In this document: positions 7,556-18,001 of the stretch, one piece after another | Layout: every line of letters starts with the position of its first letter | Position numbering within the stretch: position 1 is the stretch's first letter | Assembly: GCA_027485485.1 (NCBI GenBank) | Contig: JAIXQY010000219.1 | Span: 1-51,617 of the forward strand | Direction: 5' to 3' | DNA from: Sphingomonadales bacterium | Lineage (GTDB): Bacteria; Pseudomonadota; Alphaproteobacteria; Sphingomonadales; Sphingomonadaceae | Length of the DNA stretch: 51,617 nucleotides | Program-made: the position numbers and the translations under genes | The notes under the pieces: model-generated | Database searches by the model: none | What the model was told of the DNA's origin: nothing | What the model saw: the letters and a program-made list of their open reading frames with translations, nothing else

Positions 7556-8455
7556 TCAGCCCAGCGACTCGACGATGGCGCGGCCCAGGGCCGGGAAATG
7601 GCGGTTGCGTTCGGCCAATTCGGATTTGGCGGCGAACAGATAGGCCGCCACCCAGATGCGCTTGCCCGATGGCGGGGTGATCACGGACACGATGTTGCGC
7701 GCGCGCCATTCGCTCGCGCCGGTCTTGTGCGCTTCCTTCCAGCCGGCGGGCAGGCCGGCGCGGATCATGTCCTTGCCGGTCTGGCTGTCGGCCATCCATT
7801 GCAGCAGCAGATCGCGATCGGCCACGCGCAGCACCCGGCCGGACAGCAGCGCGCGCGACAGGGCCAGCATGGCCGAAGGCGAGGTGGTGTCGCGCGGGTC
7901 TGACAGGTCCTCGCTGTTCATCGCAGGCTCGTTGCGGTCCAGCCTGGTGACCGGATCGCCAAGGCCGCGGATCCAGCGGGTCAACTCAGCCGGGGTCACG
8001 ATGGCGCGCAGGGCGGCGTTGGTTGCGCCATTGTCTGAAAGCGTGACCATGGCCTGCGCCAGGTCCAGCGGTTTGGCAAAGCCGCCGACCAGCGGTTTGG
8101 AAAAGGCCGACGGCGCCACAATATCGTCGGCCAAGATCTTCACAGCCTCATCGCGGGGGCAAGCGGCCACCTCTTCCATGTCGCGGCAGGCTGGACGGCC
8201 AATTTCCCGCGTCTTCAGGATCTTGGCCGCCAGCAGCAGCTTGAAGGTGGAGCACATCGGGAACCTCTGCCCGGCACGGTGCTGGAAGCGTTCCCCGGTG
8301 GCGGTATCATGGAGGGCGATGCCGAGGGGGCCGCCGGCGTCATGCTCGATGGTGGCAATGGCCTTGCGCAGCGGCGCGAAACGATCAGACAGGGCAAATG
8401 CCGGCGCGGCACCCAACAATGGCAGGCTTGCAACCAGCGTGCGGCGGGTGATCAA
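7556..8455 (-). CDS. bla: Class A serine beta-lactamase, Tat-type signal peptide
   Basis: FPMCSTFK (SxxK), SDN, omega loop LDRNEPAMN…DPRDTTSP and HKTG. TTG start at 8455 with AAGGAG upstream; TRRTL twin-arginine leader. Confidence 0.9.
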   Translation of the reverse strand: MITRRTLVASLPLLGAAPAFALSDRFAPLRKAIATIEHDAGGPLGIALHDTATGERFQHRAGQRFPMCSTFKLLLAAKILKTREIGRPACRDMEEVAACPRDEAVKILADDIVAPSAFSKPLVGGFAKPLDLAQAMVTLSDNGATNAALRAIVTPAELTRWIRGLGDPVTRLDRNEPAMNSEDLSDPRDTTSPSAMLALSRALLSGRVLRVADRDLLLQWMADSQTGKDMIRAGLPAGWKEAHKTGASEWRARNIVSVITPPSGKRIWVAAYLFAAKSELAERNRHFPALGRAIVESLG

Positions 8456-8543
8456 TGCGTGTCTCCTTGCCAGGGCGGAAAACATTACAGAAAATACATG
8501 AGCATAATAGCCCGTCAACACGGGCCAGAAAAGGAAATTGGGG

Positions 8544-9344
8544 ATGATCGATTGGAGCGGACAGCGCGTGCTGATCACCGGGGCGGCCAGTGGGATCGGG
8601 CGGGCACTGGCGGTGCAGCTGAGCCAGCGCAGGGCGCTGGTTGTGGCGGCGGATGTCAATGGGGAGGGCGTGGCCGAAACCGCCCGTCTGTGTGGCGGTG
8701 AGGCGCTGGTGCTTGATCTGGCCGATGGTGCGGCCGGGCCGGCAGCGGTGGAGCGAATTGTTGCCCGCCATGGCCGGCTGGACGCGGTGTTTGCCAATGC
8801 CGGCATTGGCTATACGCGCCGCCTGCTGAAGGCCGATCTGGATGATCCCGGCTTGGCGCGGCTTTGGGAAATCAACATGATCGGCCCCACGCGGCTGGCG
8901 CAGGCCCTGGTGGCCGCGGCCGAAGCCGGCGGCTGGCGCGGCCGGATTGTCATCACCGGATCGGAAAACAGCCTGTCGCTGCCGCCGTCCATCCAGAACT
9001 TCGGCAACGGGCTCTATGCGGCGGCCAAACATGGCGTGCTGATCTTGGCGGAATGGCTGGCCACCGAAACCCGCAACGCCGGCAAGCCGCTGGATGTGCA
9101 TGTGCTGCTGCCCGGGGGCGTCTACACCGGGCTCACTGCCGCGGGCCTTGGCGATGATCCGGCGAAATGGCCGGCAGACATGGGCATCATCACGCCGGAA
9201 CGTGCGGCCGAACTGTGCCTGAAGGGGCTCGATCTGGGGCTGTTCCACATCCCCACCCACGCGCATCTTCATGATGACATGGGCGCCCGCTATGCCAGCG
9301 TGGGCGCGGCCACCGCCGCCCTGGGCTTGACGAAAAGCGCGTGA
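8544..9344 (+). CDS. Short-chain dehydrogenase/reductase
   Basis: TGAASGIG, ANAGIG and YAAAK catalytic motif. Confidence 0.9.
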   Translation: MIDWSGQRVLITGAASGIGRALAVQLSQRRALVVAADVNGEGVAETARLCGGEALVLDLADGAAGPAAVERIVARHGRLDAVFANAGIGYTRRLLKADLDDPGLARLWEINMIGPTRLAQALVAAAEAGGWRGRIVITGSENSLSLPPSIQNFGNGLYAAAKHGVLILAEWLATETRNAGKPLDVHVLLPGGVYTGLTAAGLGDDPAKWPADMGIITPERAAELCLKGLDLGLFHIPTHAHLHDDMGARYASVGAATAALGLTKSA

Positions 9345-9399: not shown

Positions 9400-10251
9400 A
9401 TGATGACACCGCCGATCCCGCCCAGCCTGTTCCCCAGTGCCGAAACCGATGCGCGCTTGGGCAACACCCCCACCGCGGTGCCGCAGACGGAGCACCCGGC
9501 CTATCGCCTGGCCTTTCAGGACCATGAGTTCCTGCTGCGCGAAGATCTGCGGCCGGTGCGGTTCCAGCTTGAGCTGCTGAAGACCGAGCTGCTGCTGGCC
9601 GAAGCCGGGATTGATTCGACCTTCGTCTTCTATGGCTCGGCGCGCATCCCGTCGCCCGAAGCCGCCCAGGCGCTGATCGATGCGGCCGAAACCCCGGAAC
9701 GCCGGGCGGTGGCGCAACGGCTGGCGGCCAACGCGCGCTATTATGAGGTGGCGCGTGAGCTGGCCGTGCAGGTTTCCAGCTTCTGCCAGGCCGGGGAGCG
9801 TTGCTTCACGGTCTGCTCCGGCGGCGGCCCGTCCATCATGGAAGCCGCCAACCGCGGTGCCTGGGAAAGCGGCGCGCCATCGCTGGGCCTCAACATCGTG
9901 CTGCCGCACGAACAAGTGCCCAACCCCTATGTGACGCCCGGCCTTTCGGTGCAGTTCCACTATTTCGCGCTGAGGAAGATGCACTTCCTGATGCGCGCCA
10001 AGGCGGTGGCGGTGTTCCCCGGCGGCTTTGGCACGTTCGATGAATTTTTCGAACTGCTCACCCTGGTGCAAACCGGCAAGGTCGCACCCCTGCCGATCCT
10101 GCTCTATGGCCGGGATTTCTGGAACCGCGTGGTAAATTTCGAGGCGCTGGCCGAAGAGGGCGTGATCGCGCCGGATGATCTGAAGCTGTTCCACTTCGTC
10201 GAAACCGCGGAGGAAGGCTGGGGCATCGTGAAGGCGCATTACGGGCTGTAA
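9400..10251 (+). CDS. LOG family (TIGR00730-like) nucleotide phosphoribohydrolase
   Basis: FYGSAR, SGGGPSIMEAANRGA, YFALRKMHF and PGGFGTFDE motifs. Confidence 0.92.
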   Translation: MMTPPIPPSLFPSAETDARLGNTPTAVPQTEHPAYRLAFQDHEFLLREDLRPVRFQLELLKTELLLAEAGIDSTFVFYGSARIPSPEAAQALIDAAETPERRAVAQRLAANARYYEVARELAVQVSSFCQAGERCFTVCSGGGPSIMEAANRGAWESGAPSLGLNIVLPHEQVPNPYVTPGLSVQFHYFALRKMHFLMRAKAVAVFPGGFGTFDEFFELLTLVQTGKVAPLPILLYGRDFWNRVVNFEALAEEGVIAPDDLKLFHFVETAEEGWGIVKAHYGL

Positions 10252-10334
10252 GGGGCAGGGGCAAGGCCCCTGCGCCCACAGCTGTTGGCGGCGCTGCTGA
10301 AACAAACGGGAGAGGTTGGCCACACCGGCCAATT

Positions 10335-10424
10335 TCCCCCACCCTGCTGATCAACAAGGTTCAAGGGTAGATCTGCCGGCGCCATTGGCCGATCGGTGCG
10401 GGTCGGCGCTGGGTGGCGGCGCGA
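10335..10424. repeat. Conserved ~90-bp segment downstream of paralog, copy 1
   Basis: Aligns with 11218-11308 (shared tccccca…ctga…ggttcaa…cggcgcc…ggccgatcggtgc…gtggcg…gatca). Confidence 0.75.
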
Positions 10425-10934
10425 TCAACCGTCGCCGCGTCTGTTCACGATAGGCGGGTCAAGCGGCACCAATGCAAAGTTGTACATATCTTCTATGGGC
10501 CAGCATTTTACCTTGAGGCAATACCCGTAGGATCCGTCGCTATTGTCTATATCTGTAAATATAAGGGTCGATATATCTTCATTGGAAGGGTTTACTGTAA
10601 ATTCCGATTCTGGCGGCGCTGTGGGTCGACCGTGATTTGGGGCTGCTGTAAATTCAACAGCATCAGATCGAGGTGTGGGAAATATTGCCATTGCTGGGTG
10701 GCCATCTTTATCAACAACTCTATTATTGAGCGTAAATCTCATGACTGTAGAATTGGTGTATTCGTCAGTCTTGTTCATTTGCGTAAGATCGATCGCGCCT
10801 GTGGCTGAGACGACATTCGTACTTACAGGAAGTGAACGTGTCATGCTGTATGCTGCGTCAATTGACCAAGTCGTGTTCGGATTCTGTTGTCCAGTCAAGG
10901 TCACAGTAATATCTAACTCCATTTGTTGTGGCAT
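10425..10934 (-). CDS. Hypothetical beta-rich protein, 169 aa, C-terminal LDPPIVNR (DP-EP/PixA-like by resemblance only)
   Basis: AT-rich ORF with AAGGGA RBS. Aligns without gaps to 11309-11818 at ~89/169 identities (manual count). Confidence 0.85.
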   Translation of the reverse strand: MPQQMELDITVTLTGQQNPNTTWSIDAAYSMTRSLPVSTNVVSATGAIDLTQMNKTDEYTNSTVMRFTLNNRVVDKDGHPAMAIFPTPRSDAVEFTAAPNHGRPTAPPESEFTVNPSNEDISTLIFTDIDNSDGSYGYCLKVKCWPIEDMYNFALVPLDPPIVNRRGDG

Positions 10935-11088
10935 GGCGCGTCCCTTTCGAGTTGATTGCTACAGATTTCTTCTGAAAATGCTCAGGCTCATAAAATCAAT
11001 CACAGACTGGTGAGTCTGTAAATATGATTCATAACTTTAGCAAAACAGAAAATACTCTTTTCAGAAAAATACTATTTTGTTCAATCGG

Positions 11089-11202
11089 TTATGAAGTAGC
11101 CACGCGGTCCAGCAGCCTGGCAGCGGGATAACGATTGGTCAGCGCGGTTTCGGCGATGCCGGCTTCGGGCAGCAGCAGGCGAAGGGCGGCCACCATCGCC
11201 AG
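11089..11202 (-). pseudogene. Orphan 3' fragment homologous to the C-terminus of the TIR-TM-TPR gene
   Basis: Translates as LAMVAALRLLLPEAGIAETALTNRYPAARLLDRVATS* versus LAMLAALRRRLPEADIAEPALTNRYPAAGLLNRVASS* (29/37 identical), with the stop position conserved. Confidence 0.85.
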
Positions 11203-11217
11203 GGTAGGCGGATAACC

Positions 11218-11308
11218 TCCCCCAGTCCTCCTGAGGGCCATGGTTCAAACGTCAATCGGTCGGCGCCGTGGGCCGATCGGTGCAGACCGGCCCTGTGTGG
11301 CGACCTGA
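11218..11308. repeat. Conserved ~90-bp segment downstream of paralog, copy 2
   Basis: Aligns with 10335-10424. Confidence 0.75.
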
Positions 11309-11818
11309 TCAATTGTCGGCGGGTCTGTTCGTGATCGGCGGATCCAGTCGCACCAATACCGGGGTTGAACCGGTCTGAATATTGCAGCAGGATATCTTGA
11401 GACAATATTCGTAGGATCCAACACTATTGTCCAAGTCTGTGAACAAGAGGAAGTATGGAGTTCCTATGGACGTGTTTACAGTAAATTCTGATTCCGGCGG
11501 TGCTGAGGGTGGACCGGGAACCTGGTCTCGCGTGAACTCAACTGCGCTGGAGTGCGGATCAGGAAAACAGACGTTTGCTCCATAGCCATTTTTGTCATGT
11601 ACCGTGGAAATAATGGTAAATGTCATGTCTGTCGCGCTGCTATAGTCGGCCGTCTTGGCCATTTTGGTCAGGTCGATCGCACCTGAGGCTGTGACGACAC
11701 CCTGGCTTGGCGGGTTGCAGTTCCGCACGCTGTAGACGGCATGAACCGTCCAACTGTTGTCGGCATTTTCCTGACCGGACAAGGTCACATTGATATCCAA
11801 TTTCATGTTTTGTGGCAT
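11309..11818 (-). CDS. Hypothetical beta-rich protein, 169 aa, C-terminal LDPPITNR (paralog of 10425-10934)
   Basis: Start MPQNMKLD at 11818 with AAGGA RBS. Shares GAIDLT, AVEFT, APPESEFTVN, FTDxDNSxGSYxYCLK and LDPPIxNR with the neighbouring paralog. Confidence 0.85.
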   Translation of the reverse strand: MPQNMKLDINVTLSGQENADNSWTVHAVYSVRNCNPPSQGVVTASGAIDLTKMAKTADYSSATDMTFTIISTVHDKNGYGANVCFPDPHSSAVEFTRDQVPGPPSAPPESEFTVNTSIGTPYFLLFTDLDNSVGSYEYCLKISCCNIQTGSTPVLVRLDPPITNRPADN

Positions 11819-11893
11819 GTTACATCCTTTTGAATACGATTGTTTAAGCAACGCAAAGGCTACACTTTTCGGGAGATTTTATTATTTAGTTGT

Positions 11894-13987
11894 TCATGAA
11901 GATGCCACGCGATTCAGCAGCCCGGCCGCCGGGTAACGGTTGGTCAATGCCGGTTCGGCAATGTCGGCTTCGGGCAGCCGCCGGCGAAGGGCGGCCAGCA
12001 TGGCCAGGGCGCGCTGGTCAGGCGCCGGGCCGACAAAGCCAGACGCCAGCCGCGCCGTTTCCACCGCGCCGGCGCGATCACCTGTGGCCAACCTGTCGGC
12101 CGCCTCGAGGCTGAGCACCATGATCCACGCCGCCTGGGTGCCGCGTCCAGCCTGGCGATCGGCCGCCATATTGTTGTTTTTGCGGAAGGCGGCGATTCCG
12201 GCGCGCGCTCCGGCCCGGTCACCGGTGCCGAAGCGGACCGCGATTCCCGTCCACGCGCTGTTGAGGCCCAGCACCCGCCAGTTGGAATTTTTGGGGTCTT
12301 CGGTCACCAGCTGCCGGGACTTGGCTGCGGCCCAGCGGCTCGTCTGCACGGCCTCTGGCCACCGCCCGGCCAGAGCCAAGGCTTCGGAGCGGCGATTTGC
12401 AGCGCTGACTGCAAGTTCAAGCCACAGGTGATTTTCCGGGTCCTGCGCGATGGATGCTTCGAGATCCTGGAAGGCCGCCCGCGAACGCTCGATGGCTGAA
12501 GCTGTGTCCCCATCAAGCAGATCAAGCTCGGCCAATGCCTCGCGGGCGTTGCCTTTCGAAATCCGGGAGTCGGCGTGGCTGGCATCGCTGGAGAGGATGA
12601 CGGTGTAGATTGCAAGTTCCCGCAGGCGCGCCTCGCGAGCCTTGCTATGGTCACCCTTCAATCGGAAGGCATCCGCCAGCCAGGCATGGGCTTGCCCGGC
12701 CTCCCACTGCTTGCCGCTGTCGCCAGTGTTGGCCGCAGCCAATTCGGCCGTGATCCGCGCATAACGCTGAAACTGCGCAATGGCCTGATCGGCTTGCAGG
12801 CGCCTGAGATACAACACGCCCAGGCTGTTGGCGGCATAGCCCTGTTCGGCTTTCCACTTGGCATTTGCCGCATCGGTTTGCGCCATGGCATCGGCCAGTT
12901 TGGCATAGGTGCGGAAGCGCTGCTCGGCCGTTTTCGCGTCTTGCCGGGCCCAGGCGGTCTGTCCCACAAAGAACACGCTTTGGGCATGATCGAACATGCG
13001 TTCCGGCGTGTCGGGATCGCGCGCCAGAAGTTCGCCGGTCGCCCGTTCCGCTTCCCGAAACGCCTTCAACGCCCCGACGCTGTCGCCGCGCAGATCGCGC
13101 ACTTCACCGACCAGGTGCAAGGCACGGGCGCGGCGGCCCAACTCGCTGGCATCCAGCGCCGAAAGCGTTTGTGCTTCGTAATAGGCCAGCGCCTTCTGGC
13201 CAACAGCATCCAGCACCTCCAGCCGGCCAACCGGCTCCAGCTTGTTGCGCAGATCGGTGAGCATGAATTCAACCAGACCATCGGCCTGCGCCCGCTGCCG
13301 CTCGGCTTCCCGCTGGCCCTGGATGGCCAGCACGGTGAGCACCGCCATCGCTACGGCGAGCACCAACGACACGGCGGCCACCAGCACCAGCCGTTGTTGC
13401 CGCCGGGCCGCCTCCCGCTGCACCAGGGCATCAAGCGGCAGCCCGGTCAGCCCGGCCACCAGTTTCAGCTTGGCCAGCTTCTTGCCGTCACCTTCCGGCC
13501 TGATGTCGGCCGCGATCGGTTCAATCGGGTCGTTGCTGATCGCGCCGCCGGGCAACACATGAAATTTCAGGGCCGGCGGAAAACAGGCGCTGATCTGTGG
13601 ATCGGCGGGATCGCCATCGACGATCAGCGCGAGCACGCGGGCGGTGCCGCCGCCGCGCTTGCCGCCATGCAGCAGCTTGAATTGCCGCACCTCTTCGTTG
13701 ACCCAGGTCGACCGGGCCGCCGCCGGGGAGCAGACGACGATCAGGAACTGCGATCGCTTCAGGGCGCCCAACAGCTCGGCGGAAAGATCGCCAGCGGCCG
13801 GCAGCTCATTGCGGTCGCGGAACAGAGAGCCGAGCCGCGCGGGAACCGGCCCAAGCGCGGTTTCGAACCCGACCAGCTTTGCCGGGATGCGATAGGCTTC
13901 CAGCGCGCGGTGCAACCATTCCACAACCCGCGCATCGGCATGGCTGTAACTGATGAAGGCACGATATTGCGCTGGTTGCGGCTTCAC
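11894..13987 (-). CDS. TIR domain + single transmembrane helix + TPR-like helical repeat protein
   Basis: N-terminal AFISYSHAD…LFRDRNEL…LIVVCSPAAARSTWVNEE (TIR with the Glu at the catalytic position). Hydrophobic LVLVAAVSLVLAVAMAVLTVLAI segment, then Ala/Leu-rich helical repeats. Confidence 0.9.
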   Translation of the reverse strand: MKPQPAQYRAFISYSHADARVVEWLHRALEAYRIPAKLVGFETALGPVPARLGSLFRDRNELPAAGDLSAELLGALKRSQFLIVVCSPAAARSTWVNEEVRQFKLLHGGKRGGGTARVLALIVDGDPADPQISACFPPALKFHVLPGGAISNDPIEPIAADIRPEGDGKKLAKLKLVAGLTGLPLDALVQREAARRQQRLVLVAAVSLVLAVAMAVLTVLAIQGQREAERQRAQADGLVEFMLTDLRNKLEPVGRLEVLDAVGQKALAYYEAQTLSALDASELGRRARALHLVGEVRDLRGDSVGALKAFREAERATGELLARDPDTPERMFDHAQSVFFVGQTAWARQDAKTAEQRFRTYAKLADAMAQTDAANAKWKAEQGYAANSLGVLYLRRLQADQAIAQFQRYARITAELAAANTGDSGKQWEAGQAHAWLADAFRLKGDHSKAREARLRELAIYTVILSSDASHADSRISKGNAREALAELDLLDGDTASAIERSRAAFQDLEASIAQDPENHLWLELAVSAANRRSEALALAGRWPEAVQTSRWAAAKSRQLVTEDPKNSNWRVLGLNSAWTGIAVRFGTGDRAGARAGIAAFRKNNNMAADRQAGRGTQAAWIMVLSLEAADRLATGDRAGAVETARLASGFVGPAPDQRALAMLAALRRRLPEADIAEPALTNRYPAAGLLNRVASS

Positions 13988-14219
13988 ATCCCTGGCCCCC
14001 CGGAGTTGATGCTACACCTTATTGCAACATCCACAATTGGCATCTTGCATGTCGAAGACGCGGGGCGGGAATTTGGCAGATATCATCCTGCCCAGTTGGG
14101 CAATATCGGGAAACCCGGCTTGCCGAAATCTTGAGGTCGCGCAATGGGATGGGTGAAAGCATGTGGCTGCAGCGGCTCAACCTCTGCCGGCTGAAGGCCC
14201 GTTTTCTTGCCTTCCCACG

Positions 14220-14254
14220 AAAAAGGGCGGCGGCCGTTGCCGGCCGCCGCCCTT
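14220..14254 (-). terminator. Rho-independent terminator of the cytochrome c gene
   Basis: aagggcggcggccg-ttgc-cggccgccgccctt hairpin followed by a U-run on the minus strand. Confidence 0.8.
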
Positions 14255-14272
14255 GATTTCAAGCAATGCTGC

Positions 14273-14893
14273 TTACTTGGCGGGCGCGTCAGCTGCCGGA
14301 GCAGCGTCTTCGGCGGGCGCTGCTTCCTCGGCAGCCGGGGCTTCTTCGGCCGGGGCGGCGGGCAGCGGCAGCGGGCTGGCGCTCTTGGAGTTGAGATAGG
14401 CGATGACGGCGGCACGGTCTTCCGGCTTGCTGATGCCCGCAAAGCTCATCTTGTTGCCGGCGGCATAGGCCTTCGGGCTCTTGAGCCAGCCCCACAGCGC
14501 GTCCCAATCCCAGTTCTTGCCCTTCATGCCGCCCAGCGCGTCGGAATAGCTGAAGCCGGCTGCCGCTGCGATCGGGCGGCCAACCACGCCGTGCAGGGCC
14601 GGGCCGGTGCCGTTGGCGCCGCCGGGATCGACATTGTGGCAGGCGGCGCATTTCTTGAACACGGCTTCGCCCTTGGCGACATCTGCGCTGGCCAGATAGA
14701 AGGCAGCGGGCTTTTCGGCTTCGGCCGCAGCGGCGCCTTCGGCTGGGGCTTCTTCGGCGCCGGCCACTTCATAGCCGGGCTTTTCCGGCACGTGACGCGC
14801 AAACATCTCGTCGCTGACGATGGAAACGCCCAACACGGCGAGCAGGCCCGCCAGCGTGCCGCCAAAAATCTTGTTCCACTCGAAACTGTCCAC
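14273..14893 (-). CDS. Membrane-anchored cytochrome c (CycM/c2-like)
   Basis: N-terminal anchor (DSFEWNKIFGG…), CAACH heme motif, GPALHGVVGR and GNKMSFAG with the axial Met. GTG start with GGAG upstream. Confidence 0.92.
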   Translation of the reverse strand: MDSFEWNKIFGGTLAGLLAVLGVSIVSDEMFARHVPEKPGYEVAGAEEAPAEGAAAAEAEKPAAFYLASADVAKGEAVFKKCAACHNVDPGGANGTGPALHGVVGRPIAAAAGFSYSDALGGMKGKNWDWDALWGWLKSPKAYAAGNKMSFAGISKPEDRAAVIAYLNSKSASPLPLPAAPAEEAPAAEEAAPAEDAAPAADAPAK

Positions 14894-15020
14894 GTGTCGC
14901 TCCATTCGCGCGGCGGCTGGCCATGATCACAGCCTGCGCCCTACCGCCGCAGGGGATAGGCAATTGCGGCGCGCCTCGCAAGCATTTGCTTGTTGCAGCG
15001 CACTATCATAACGAGCGGAC

Positions 15021-15917: not shown

Positions 15918-16454
15918 TCAGGCGGGCGCGCGCAGCAGCCGCACCAGGGCCTTGCCAAAGCGGCGCTCGACCACGCGTTCCCACTCGCAGGCCAGCGGAT
16001 CGGCCGCGGCCGTCTCCACGCTGACGAGGGCGCCGGACGCGATCCAGCCGCGTTCGTGGAGGTGGCTGAGTGCCGGATCGGCCAGCCCCAGGCCATAGGG
16101 CGGATCGAGAAACACCAGATGATGTTCGCGCGGCGCGCCGCCGATGCTGGCCACCGGGCTTTGCCGCACATCGCCCACCGCCCCCAGCGCGGTGAGGTTG
16201 GCGCGGATGGCCTTCACGGCCGCTGCGTCATTGTCGATGAAACAGGCGGAGCCGGCGCCGCGCGACAAGGCCTCGATGCCGAGTGCGCCGGTACCGGCAA
16301 ACAGATCGAGCACATCCAGCCCTTCGAAGCTGCCGAGGCGACTGGCCAACATGGAGAAAATCGCTTCGCGCGCGCGGTCGCTGGTGGGGCGGGTAGATTC
16401 GCCCGGCGGGGCTTTCAGAGCGCGGCCCCGCCATTGGCCCGATATGACGCGCAT
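15918..16454 (-). CDS. rsmD: 16S rRNA m2G966 methyltransferase
   Basis: MRVISGQWRGR, TRPTSDRAREAIF, LDLFAGTGALGIEALSRGA and LDPPY. Confidence 0.95.
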   Translation of the reverse strand: MRVISGQWRGRALKAPPGESTRPTSDRAREAIFSMLASRLGSFEGLDVLDLFAGTGALGIEALSRGAGSACFIDNDAAAVKAIRANLTALGAVGDVRQSPVASIGGAPREHHLVFLDPPYGLGLADPALSHLHERGWIASGALVSVETAAADPLACEWERVVERRFGKALVRLLRAPA

Positions 16455-17803
16455 CAACGCTGCTCCGGTTTGGACGCCTTCAGCATGGATCTGAGCAGGG
16501 CCAGATCGGCTTCGGGGATTTCATCGGCCATGCGCGGCGGCAGATCATCCAGGCCGATCGGGCCATAGGCCACGCGGATCAGCCGGTTCACCTGCAGCCC
16601 GATATGTTCCAGGATGCGGCGCACCTCGCGGTTCTTGCCTTCGCGGATGGTGACGATCAGCCAGAGATTATGGCCGGTCTTGCGCTCGATATCGGCCAGC
16701 ACCGGGCCATAATGAATGCCATCGATGCTGATGCCATCGGCCAGGCTTTCCAGCGCCGCCTGTGTCACCTCGCCAAAGGCGCGCACGCGATAGACGCGCG
16801 GCACGTTGGAGGAGGGCAGTTCCAGCGCGCGCTTCAGCTCGCCATCAGTGGTGAGCAGGAGCAGGCCTTCGGTGTTCATGTCGAGCCGGCCCACCGGCAC
16901 CACGCGCGGCAGGCCTTCGGGCAGGATGTCCATGATGGTCGGGCGTCCGGCCGGGTCGCGCGCGGCGGTGAGGAAGCCGGCGGGCTTGTGAAAGCGATAC
17001 AGCTTGGCCGGTGCAATGCCGGCCACTGGCTGGCCATCAACCGTCACATCCTTCAGGCTGGTGATGTTGAGCGCGGGCGAGGTGAGCACCTCGCCGGCAA
17101 TGGCGATGCGGCCTTCGGCAACCATGCGTTCGATATCGCGGCGTGATCCCACCCCGGCGCGGGCCAGGGCCTTGGCGATACGTTGCTCCGCAACCTCGGT
17201 CTGGCGCACCGGCGGCGGCGCGCGCTTGATGCGGGGTTGTTCGGCGCGTGGCGGTTTGCCGGGGCCGGCGGGGCGGGTGTCGGGACGTTCGCTGCGCTCC
17301 GGGCGGCGGCGGTCGGGCCGGGCATCGGCATCGCGGCTGCGGAAGGGGCGGGCTGCGCCGTCGCGGGCTGGGCGCTCGCTGCGGTCCGGGCGGTCGCGGG
17401 TTTCGGCGCGGCGGCGATCCGGGCGGGCATCGGCATCGCGGCGGTCCGGGCCGGCATCACGACTGCGGAAGGGGCGAGTTGCGCCGTCGCGGACCGGGCG
17501 CTCGCTGCGCGCAGGGCGTTCACCGCGTTCCGGGCCGGCATCACGGCTGCGGAAGGGCCGGGCTGCGCCGTCGCGGGAAGGGCGGTCGCTGCGATCCAGG
17601 CGGTCGCGGGTTTCGGCGCGGCGGCGATCCGGGCGGGCATCGGCCTCGCGGCGGTCCGGGCCGGCATCACTGCTGCGGAAAGGCCGGGCCTGGCCATCGT
17701 CATTTGAGCGCGCACGGGCCGGCCGGCCATCGGCGCGGGGCGGACGGGCGTTGGGACGAGCGGGGGGACGGCCGGGACCGGAAGGCTTGCGGGGTGGTCG
17801 CAT
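16454..17803 (-). CDS. rluB: rRNA pseudouridine synthase (RluB-like) with long Arg/Pro/Asp repeat N-terminus
   Basis: S4 domain RIAKALARAGVGSRR, VGRLDMNTEGLLLLT and EGKNREVRR. Start codon uncertain. Confidence 0.88.
   Translation of the reverse strand: MRPPRKPSGPGRPPARPNARPPRADGRPARARSNDDGQARPFRSSDAGPDRREADARPDRRRAETRDRLDRSDRPSRDGAARPFRSRDAGPERGERPARSERPVRDGATRPFRSRDAGPDRRDADARPDRRRAETRDRPDRSERPARDGAARPFRSRDADARPDRRRPERSERPDTRPAGPGKPPRAEQPRIKRAPPPVRQTEVAEQRIAKALARAGVGSRRDIERMVAEGRIAIAGEVLTSPALNITSLKDVTVDGQPVAGIAPAKLYRFHKPAGFLTAARDPAGRPTIMDILPEGLPRVVPVGRLDMNTEGLLLLTTDGELKRALELPSSNVPRVYRVRAFGEVTQAALESLADGISIDGIHYGPVLADIERKTGHNLWLIVTIREGKNREVRRILEHIGLQVNRLIRVAYGPIGLDDLPPRMADEIPEADLALLRSMLKASKPEQR
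17285..17700 (-). repeat. Coding tandem repeats in the pseudouridine synthase N-terminus
   Basis: RPFRSxDA occurs four times; ADARPDRRRAETRDR occurs twice in full and once partially. The DNA copies are near-identical. Confidence 0.85.
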
Positions 17804-18001
17804 GGCGCATCCCATGCGGCCAAGCCTGCCGATTGTCAAAAAATGACGGATTGGCGACGCCGGAGCCATGGGTGCCGGCCTGCCACCATGTCGTTCAGCG
17901 TGGCGTGACCAGCGTGCGGCGGACAAGATGTGATGTTTTTGTGGCGTTCGCCATTCCGGCAATTGCTCTGCCCCGCCGCTTGCGCTAACCGCTGCCGCAG
18001 A

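Follow-up and report, generated by a model that had tools for sequence, protein, structure and literature searches.

A receptor gene followed by two partner genes

What might two small, AT-rich paralogs contribute behind a single gene for a membrane protein with a TIR domain and a TPR solenoid? The question arises from a 51,617-nucleotide contig of a freshwater Sphingomonadales bacterium from the Sphingomonadaceae (GenBank assembly GCA_027485485.1, contig JAIXQY010000219.1), the whole of which we refer to as the window. A preliminary description based on the letters of the contig had singled out positions 10335 to 13987, where a gene encoding a TIR domain, a transmembrane (TM) helix, and a TPR-like solenoid (the receptor, P0001) precedes two genes for 169-residue paralogs (the partners, P0002 and P0003). 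We found that the partner accompanies one type of TPR whatever domain heads the receptor, that it has a predicted DP-EP/PixA-type beta-sandwich fold, that the cassette is present at some equivalent sites and absent from others, and that partner alleles are far older than the genes around them. The explanation that we favor, and hold about as readily as we doubt it, is that the partner is an exchangeable recognition subunit that lends specificity to a conserved receptor and would activate its TIR domain.

The partner gene follows the TPR type

Relatives of the receptor at an E value of 1e-20 or better numbered 517. Thirty loci chosen by their receptor showed homology to residues 236-600 in the segment after the membrane helix, and 28 of these could be scored, two by hand (L004 and L071); the other two were lost to a contig end and a short flank. 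A small gene with a D-P-x-[IV]-x-N-like end (a DP-tail gene) lay directly behind the receptor in 27 of the 28, several of which are close kin (L002/L072 and L040/L056), and the lone miss (L007) has its receptor split over two frames. No such gene followed any of 11 TIR receptors that had another TPR and enough flank; eight further receptors of this kind were dropped for short flanks. Matches to Pfam DP-EP (PF08985) were found in 16 of 201 genomes searched, and in each of them the match immediately followed a wHTH-nSTAND1 gene whose product has a TPR homologous to that of the window receptor (36 to 68 bits) and a less clear-cut membrane helix. Judged from gene order, the partner tracks the TPR type and not the TIR domain, whatever the receptor head, because 27 of 28 loci compare with 0 of 11 and all 16 wHTH-STAND heads with a homologous TPR are paired as well. 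The receptor-partner pairing pointed out in the preliminary description is thus conserved far beyond the window genome.

Partner type tracked receptor clade in a quick tree built from 46 TPR segments, in which the window receptor fell into a 12-row clade with a support of 97. Partners in this clade belong to the window family, and a TPR-S gene lay downstream in 0 of the 11 other loci (three of the clade's partners are in the search profile by construction, and two flanks are short). This clade is a two-gene subtype. A sister subtype has three genes: pNTSase1 (PF20301) was matched in 13 of 301 genomes, in all 13 cases flanked by a TIR-TM-TPR gene on one side and a TPR-S (PF20308) gene on the other, and the linked receptors scored 87 to 184 bits against the window TPR. 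The pNTSase1 proteins (L051, L052, and L125-L135) share the DP tail and the gene slot behind a receptor of the same architecture, and a scan of 11 TPR-S proteins revealed a cyclase domain in 3. The window differs in that PF20301 matches neither its partners nor any of 109 homologues and that no TPR-S gene is adjacent; by these two tests its locus is placed outside the subtype. The Pfam names pNTSase1 and TPR-S are said to go back to Burroughs and Aravind in 2020, as cited in two preprints, and they show that at least part of the sister subtype had been predicted before. To call the system undescribed was therefore an overstatement. The DP-EP genes stand in the corresponding position behind their receptors, but there the receptor head is wHTH-nSTAND1 instead of TIR, and the next gene encoded GGDEF, often PAS-GGDEF, in all 9 tested of the 16 loci (L110-L124 and L049); no GGDEF gene comes next in the window.

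PEP-CTERM genes occupied the partner slot of five TIR-TM receptors with another TPR (L061, L062, L064, L065, and L066), forming a parallel receptor/exported-partner system; a TPR-S gene lies upstream in L063-L066. Elsewhere in the window's genome, another TIR-TM gene is truncated at the edge of contig C178 (C178:1-1055, minus strand), and contig C100 (C100:1-3026, plus strand) opens with a PEP-CTERM gene followed by a SLOG-SLATT gene. Because the order on C100 is that of L061, the two contigs are probably one locus split by assembly, which possibly supplies a candidate effector for TIR signals in this genome.

Partner alleles are older than their neighbors

The orthologous site of a Sandarakinorhabdus sp. 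(L001) holds a single partner gene. Compared with the window, its receptor is 92% identical (synonymous divergence, dS, 0.47) and its LOG-family neighbor 94% identical (dS, 0.39), whereas its partner is 57% and 49% identical to the two window partners (dS, 1.7 and 2.0). The window partners themselves are separated by a dS of 1.27, and eight close partner alleles share 49 to 77% identity. Old, intact partner alleles beside young flanks argue for allele exchange, and the contrast in dS (1.7 to 2.0 versus 0.4 to 0.5 for receptor and LOG) fits the early proposal that alleles are gained by recombination. Kin recognition, suggested at the same time, is disfavored in the form of a co-varying pair because the TPR stays 90 to 96% identical while the partner changes by half.

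The second unit points the same way. The receptor 3' end recurs between the partners (11077-11204 versus 11882-12009, 80% nucleotide identity) as an open frame of 37 codons, and the element downstream of the partners is also repeated (10336-10473 versus 11220-11357, 74%). This orphan tip is 78% identical to that of the window receptor and 81% to that of the Sandarakinorhabdus receptor, and the tips of these two receptors are 78% alike. Recent self-duplication was rejected, since the remnant is no nearer its own receptor than the other and the partners differ by the dS given above. The simplest reading is that strains swap cassettes by crossovers close to where the receptor ends, and that on one occasion both units were kept. 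Single contigs in two public runs from two studies cover both units (X3, possibly the source run, 9999-14266, 4 differences; X8, 9999-14052, 35 differences), which excludes an assembly error as the cause of the repeat.

The layout of the repeat unit was described correctly at the outset, but a conserved RNA fold in the downstream element of about 90 bp was not supported (z, -2.0, -0.5, and -1.1). Promoter and terminator scans gave weak consensus matches and nothing stronger. The supposed expanding array amounts to two partner copies at most (window, L012, L115, and L124), and a search of the genome found no further copy of the partner or of the receptor's TPR. P0008 and P0009 each lie on 3514-base contigs and perhaps form another two-copy locus. 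Orphan cassettes of contact-dependent inhibition (CDI) and Rhs polymorphic toxins likewise join the 3' end of an upstream gene to a small, low-GC gene; the window tip, however, consists of 37 TPR codons with no toxin domain, which together with the limit of two units speaks against a polymorphic-toxin-type array.

The cassette itself comes and goes. A genus survey anchored at the cytochrome c gene yielded 29 other loci, of 58 genomes with a match: in 18, LOG lay within about 1.5 kb of cytochrome c with no receptor; 1 had a receptor; and 10 held other cargo or reached an end. Three runs contain contigs of related organisms that join up across the entire cassette. The site is accessory, and the gap from LOG to cytochrome c (10251-14273) carries cargo that varies within the genus (Table 1).

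Table 1. Features of the receptor-partner locus and its flanks, in window positions
Feature	Position	Strand	Remarks
LOG-family core gene (Lysine_decarbox)	9400..10251	+	flank, convergent
Downstream element, copy 2	10335..10424	-	
Partner 2 (P0003)	10425..10934	-	169 aa, 53% identical to partner 1
AT-rich spacer 2	10935..11088	-	~76 bp longer than spacer 1
Orphan copy of receptor 3' end	11089..11202	-	37 codons + stop
Downstream element, copy 1	11218..11308	-	
Partner 1 (P0002)	11309..11818	-	169 aa, predicted DP-EP/PixA-fold beta-sandwich, tail D159-P160-x-I-x-N-R
AT-rich spacer 1	11819..11893	-	one weak sigma-70-like match at 11908-11881
TIR-TM-TPR receptor gene (P0001)	11894..13987	-	697 aa
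TPR-like solenoid, residues 228-697	11897..13306	-	predicted model and PDB fold matches
Predicted single transmembrane helix, about residues 200-222	13322..13390	-	basic stretch before; Kyte-Doolittle 2.8
TIR_2 domain, residues 11-131	13595..13957	-	E 3e-12; Glu99 codon at 13691-13693
Cytochrome c core gene	14273..14905	-	flank, upstream

Two open reading frames farther out were read by eye. One (7556-8806, minus strand) has a C-terminal part resembling the class A beta-lactamase family, and the other (16454-17962, minus strand) is pseudouridine-synthase-like, with a long, repetitive Arg/Asp-rich N-terminus and a GC content near 0.8.

Receptor and partner proteins

The receptor's TIR domain also matches ThsB_TIR (PF08937) at 28.8 bits, above the cut-off. 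Glu99 lies at the catalytic position within a W-x-x-x-E motif and is invariant in 110 aligned receptors; we take this glutamate to be catalytic. The receptor model (predicted local distance difference test, pLDDT, 90.3) is all-helical after the membrane helix, and the best PDB fold matches of the solenoid are the TPRs of LGN/Pins. Across the family, the membrane-proximal part of the TPR is most conserved and the distal part is variable. Based on the positive-inside rule and the basic stretch before the helix, the TIR domain is likely inside and the TPR outside the inner membrane.

As first reported, the two partners are identical at 89 of 169 residues without a gap, end in LDPPITNR and LDPPIVNR, and are encoded by genes of low GC content (0.51 and 0.46, versus 0.657 for the genome). 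A profile search returned 131 representatives, and 109 sequences, seeds included, were aligned after fragments and long repeat proteins had been excluded; G46 is invariant in this alignment, D159 is present in 105 and P160 in 107. The profile matched 1 of 60 relatives and 0 of 400 class genomes, which marks the subfamily as rare, and partner searches of viral and metagenome contigs gave no matches. Pfam, NCBIfam, and PADLOC returned no match on either window partner, and no PDB entry was matched significantly by sequence. Weak Pfam matches (BIg21, PE-PPE, and GP11) were rejected.

The predicted fold was more informative. The partner model is all-beta (pLDDT, 91.4), and its top Foldseek match (E = 1.2e-4; probability, 1.0) is SO1698 of Shewanella oneidensis, a Pfam DP-EP protein (PDB 3N55 and 3NJF-3NJN). 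A second structure search also ranked SO1698 first, with a Z of 10.5, a root mean square deviation of 2.5, 117 of 121 residues aligned, and 26% identity over those 117. MakD (Z, 9.3) and PixA (Z, 9.1 and 7.6) came next, and unrelated folds began at 5.6. Of the folds proposed beforehand, DP-EP and PixA were thus recovered, and a cupredoxin fold (Z of 5.6 or less, which is background) was discarded. A profile of 16 fetched DP-EP members matched the partner profile over its C-terminal 47 columns (probability, 93%; E = 2.7e-7). Both window partners nevertheless stayed below the 25-bit Pfam cut-off for DP-EP, 7 of 109 homologues gave weak matches (best E, 5.9e-4), and at 169 residues the window partners are longer than SO1698, of about 120, with which they share the D-P-x-I-x-N tail. 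Based on the fold searches and the profile match, the partner is, as modeled, a DP-EP/PixA-fold protein outside Pfam DP-EP membership. PixA/AidA (PF12306; PDB 4LZK and 4PIB) and MakC/MakD belong to the same beta-sandwich superfamily (Z, 7.6 to 9.3) but share 7 to 9% identity with the partner and stand in other gene contexts.

SO1698 reportedly cleaves itself, as Osipiuk and colleagues are said to have described in 2012. The partner might likewise be a pro-signal cut at Asp-Pro, its freed tail peptide a ligand for the TPR groove that would report density or lysis as in quorum sensing. The rank of SO1698 among the fold matches agrees with this idea, as do the PDB titles (aspartic peptidase; D116/P117 mutants), the near-invariant Asp-Pro, and the resemblance of the receptor TPR to peptide-binding LGN TPRs; a conserved tail would also account for a conserved TPR. 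We nonetheless think it unlikely. By motif matching, the putative equivalents of D37 and K98 in SO1698 seem to be absent from the window partners, falling on Ala47 in both and on Glu/Gly137, with Asp49 two residues further; Asp occupies column 47 in 36 of 109 homologues, and the K98 column is not conserved. Among 16 Pfam DP-EP members, D37 is Asp in about 2 (by eye). Moreover, the partner tail is modeled as a strand of the fold, and a constant peptide gives no reason for keeping divergent alleles.

Other roles for the partner

If the partner were instead an inhibitor, an immunity protein or antitoxin holding a toxic TIR off, the second unit would be an orphan immunity cassette in the style of polymorphic toxins. 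The receptor tip in the orphan unit, a cytoplasmic partner on the same side as the TIR domain, low GC content, and allele turnover would all suit such a role. TIRs that are almost identical but joined to another TPR, however, lack a partner (0 of 11), while non-TIR heads with this TPR have one (16 of 16); in addition, immunity should co-vary with its toxin, yet a TIR that is 92% identical faces partners that are 49 to 57% identical. On balance, this makes an inhibitor quite improbable.

We give the same low weight to the proposal that the partner binds nothing in the receptor and is a downstream product, either an accessory protein or an oligomer like PixA/AidA, produced once the receptor has fired, with the second copy a passenger. 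PixA and MakD are the next-best fold matches, the AT-rich spacers could hold promoters, and wHTH heads are transcription regulators. MakC/MakD are described as cytosolic accessory proteins of unassigned function (PMC11484084). A TIR head, however, has no direct route to a partner promoter, yet the pairing holds, and it tracks the TPR and not the output head. The idea of a nucleotide synthetase, which the Pfam name proposes for the sister subtype's gene, draws on the shared slot and tail and on a weak profile link to the partner family that is confined to the tail (E = 6.5e-4). It is hardly credible, given that PF20301 finds no partner or homologue and that the small beta-sandwich model has no known nucleotide-enzyme fold among its top matches.

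A possible recognition subunit for a conserved receptor

We therefore return to the partner as an exchangeable recognition subunit. On this view, a membrane TIR-TPR protein and a small DP-EP-fold partner would make up a mobile module of two genes, with the TIR domain in the cytoplasm and the TPR in the periplasm. Because the TPR hardly varies, unlike the rest of the partner, it may read a constant part of that partner, most simply the D-P-x-I-x-N face, and the variable partner surface would meet something foreign, such as a phage or competitor molecule, or report damage. Partner binding would cluster the TIR domains and lead to NAD+ cleavage through Glu99. Since no adjacent gene encodes an effector, the output would be either the depletion of NAD as such or an effector encoded at another site in the genome. 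The second unit would have come by recombination from a related strain, bringing the donor's receptor tip, and would widen the range of inputs.

How the two proteins would meet is the chief difficulty. Neither window partner has a signal peptide, and a crude scan found a hydrophobic N-terminus missing from both and from 108 of 109 family members, which would place partner and TPR on opposite predicted sides of the membrane; the window partners would then meet the TPR only if they were exported by an unusual route or if the inner membrane were breached. By eye, signal peptides of lipoprotein or Sec type are present on the partners of some relatives (L026, L028, L040, L043, and L056; L008, L115, and L124), which would put those partners on the TPR side, and L115 and L124 each have one exported and one signal-less copy. 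A complex prediction for TPR residues 228-697 with partner 1, both as alignments, scored 0.00 and was not used as evidence.

Besides this topology, several observations weigh against a recognition subunit. Whole-gene dN/dS was 0.22 to 0.28, which is purifying selection with no arms-race signal at the gene level, and the relatives in the pairing counts are not independent samples. The LOG gene comes next after the partners, no effector adjoins receptor or partners, and TPR-S was not found in the window's 96%-complete genome. The flanks are housekeeping genes and not a defense island, and the PADLOC check recommended for a defense role yielded a weak TIR match in the window and no more. The GGDEF genes behind DP-EP suit physiological signaling as well as immunity.

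Relation to known TIR systems

A characterized comparison is Thoeris, with which the locus shares a ThsB-like TIR carrying a glutamate at the catalytic position, and in relatives TIR genes are paired with SLATT or TPR-bearing effectors. Here, however, the TIR shares one chain with a membrane helix and a TPR, its neighbor is no known effector, and it lies outside a defense island; the SLOG-SLATT gene is elsewhere, on C100. By the adjacent-effector test, the window locus is thus classed as distinct from Thoeris. The accessible part of a Thoeris survey covers types I to XI without mention of a membrane TIR-TPR sensor and shows 29 predicted types in a figure (bioRxiv 10.64898/2025.12.03.692087). 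TPR-S, DP-EP, and PixA are not mentioned in the portion available of PMC8195603, and the corresponding portions of PMC9503650 and PMC7075850 hold nothing specific. Our literature search for a membrane TIR-TPR protein with a DP-EP/PixA-type partner found no relevant paper, from which absence from print cannot be claimed.

Toll-like and interleukin-1 (IL-1) receptors with MD-2 or cytokine ligands offer an analogy: single-pass proteins with a binding or repeat domain outside, a TIR inside, and a small beta-rich partner. The window chain is reversed, with its TIR N-terminal, has a TPR instead of leucine-rich repeats or immunoglobulin domains, and is expected to have an enzymatic TIR; homology is limited to the TIR. 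Carried to its end, the analogy would make this a bacterial Toll-like receptor with plug-in co-receptors, a bold extension that is probably wrong. Strains would trade partner cassettes and so change what one conserved TIR-TPR protein detects; signal-less partners would be alarmins that reach the periplasmic TPR upon inner-membrane breach or neighbor lysis; and DP-EP, pNTSase1, and the window family would be one ligand superfamily for one TPR. That TPR would then be wired to three outputs (TIR; TIR with TPR-S; and STAND-wHTH with a diguanylate cyclase), and the name pNTSase1 would be a misnomer; "nucleotide synthetase" may be the wrong label.

The locus is a good test case: its single receptor has two natural partner alleles, and the 92%-identical orthologue contributes a third. 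A receptor with exchangeable partners would give the orphan DP-EP/PixA fold a job. To our knowledge, sensing by the characterized bacterial TIR systems is cytoplasmic; a widespread receptor family that apparently senses across the inner membrane with an exchangeable partner would be a new input route to TIR signaling.

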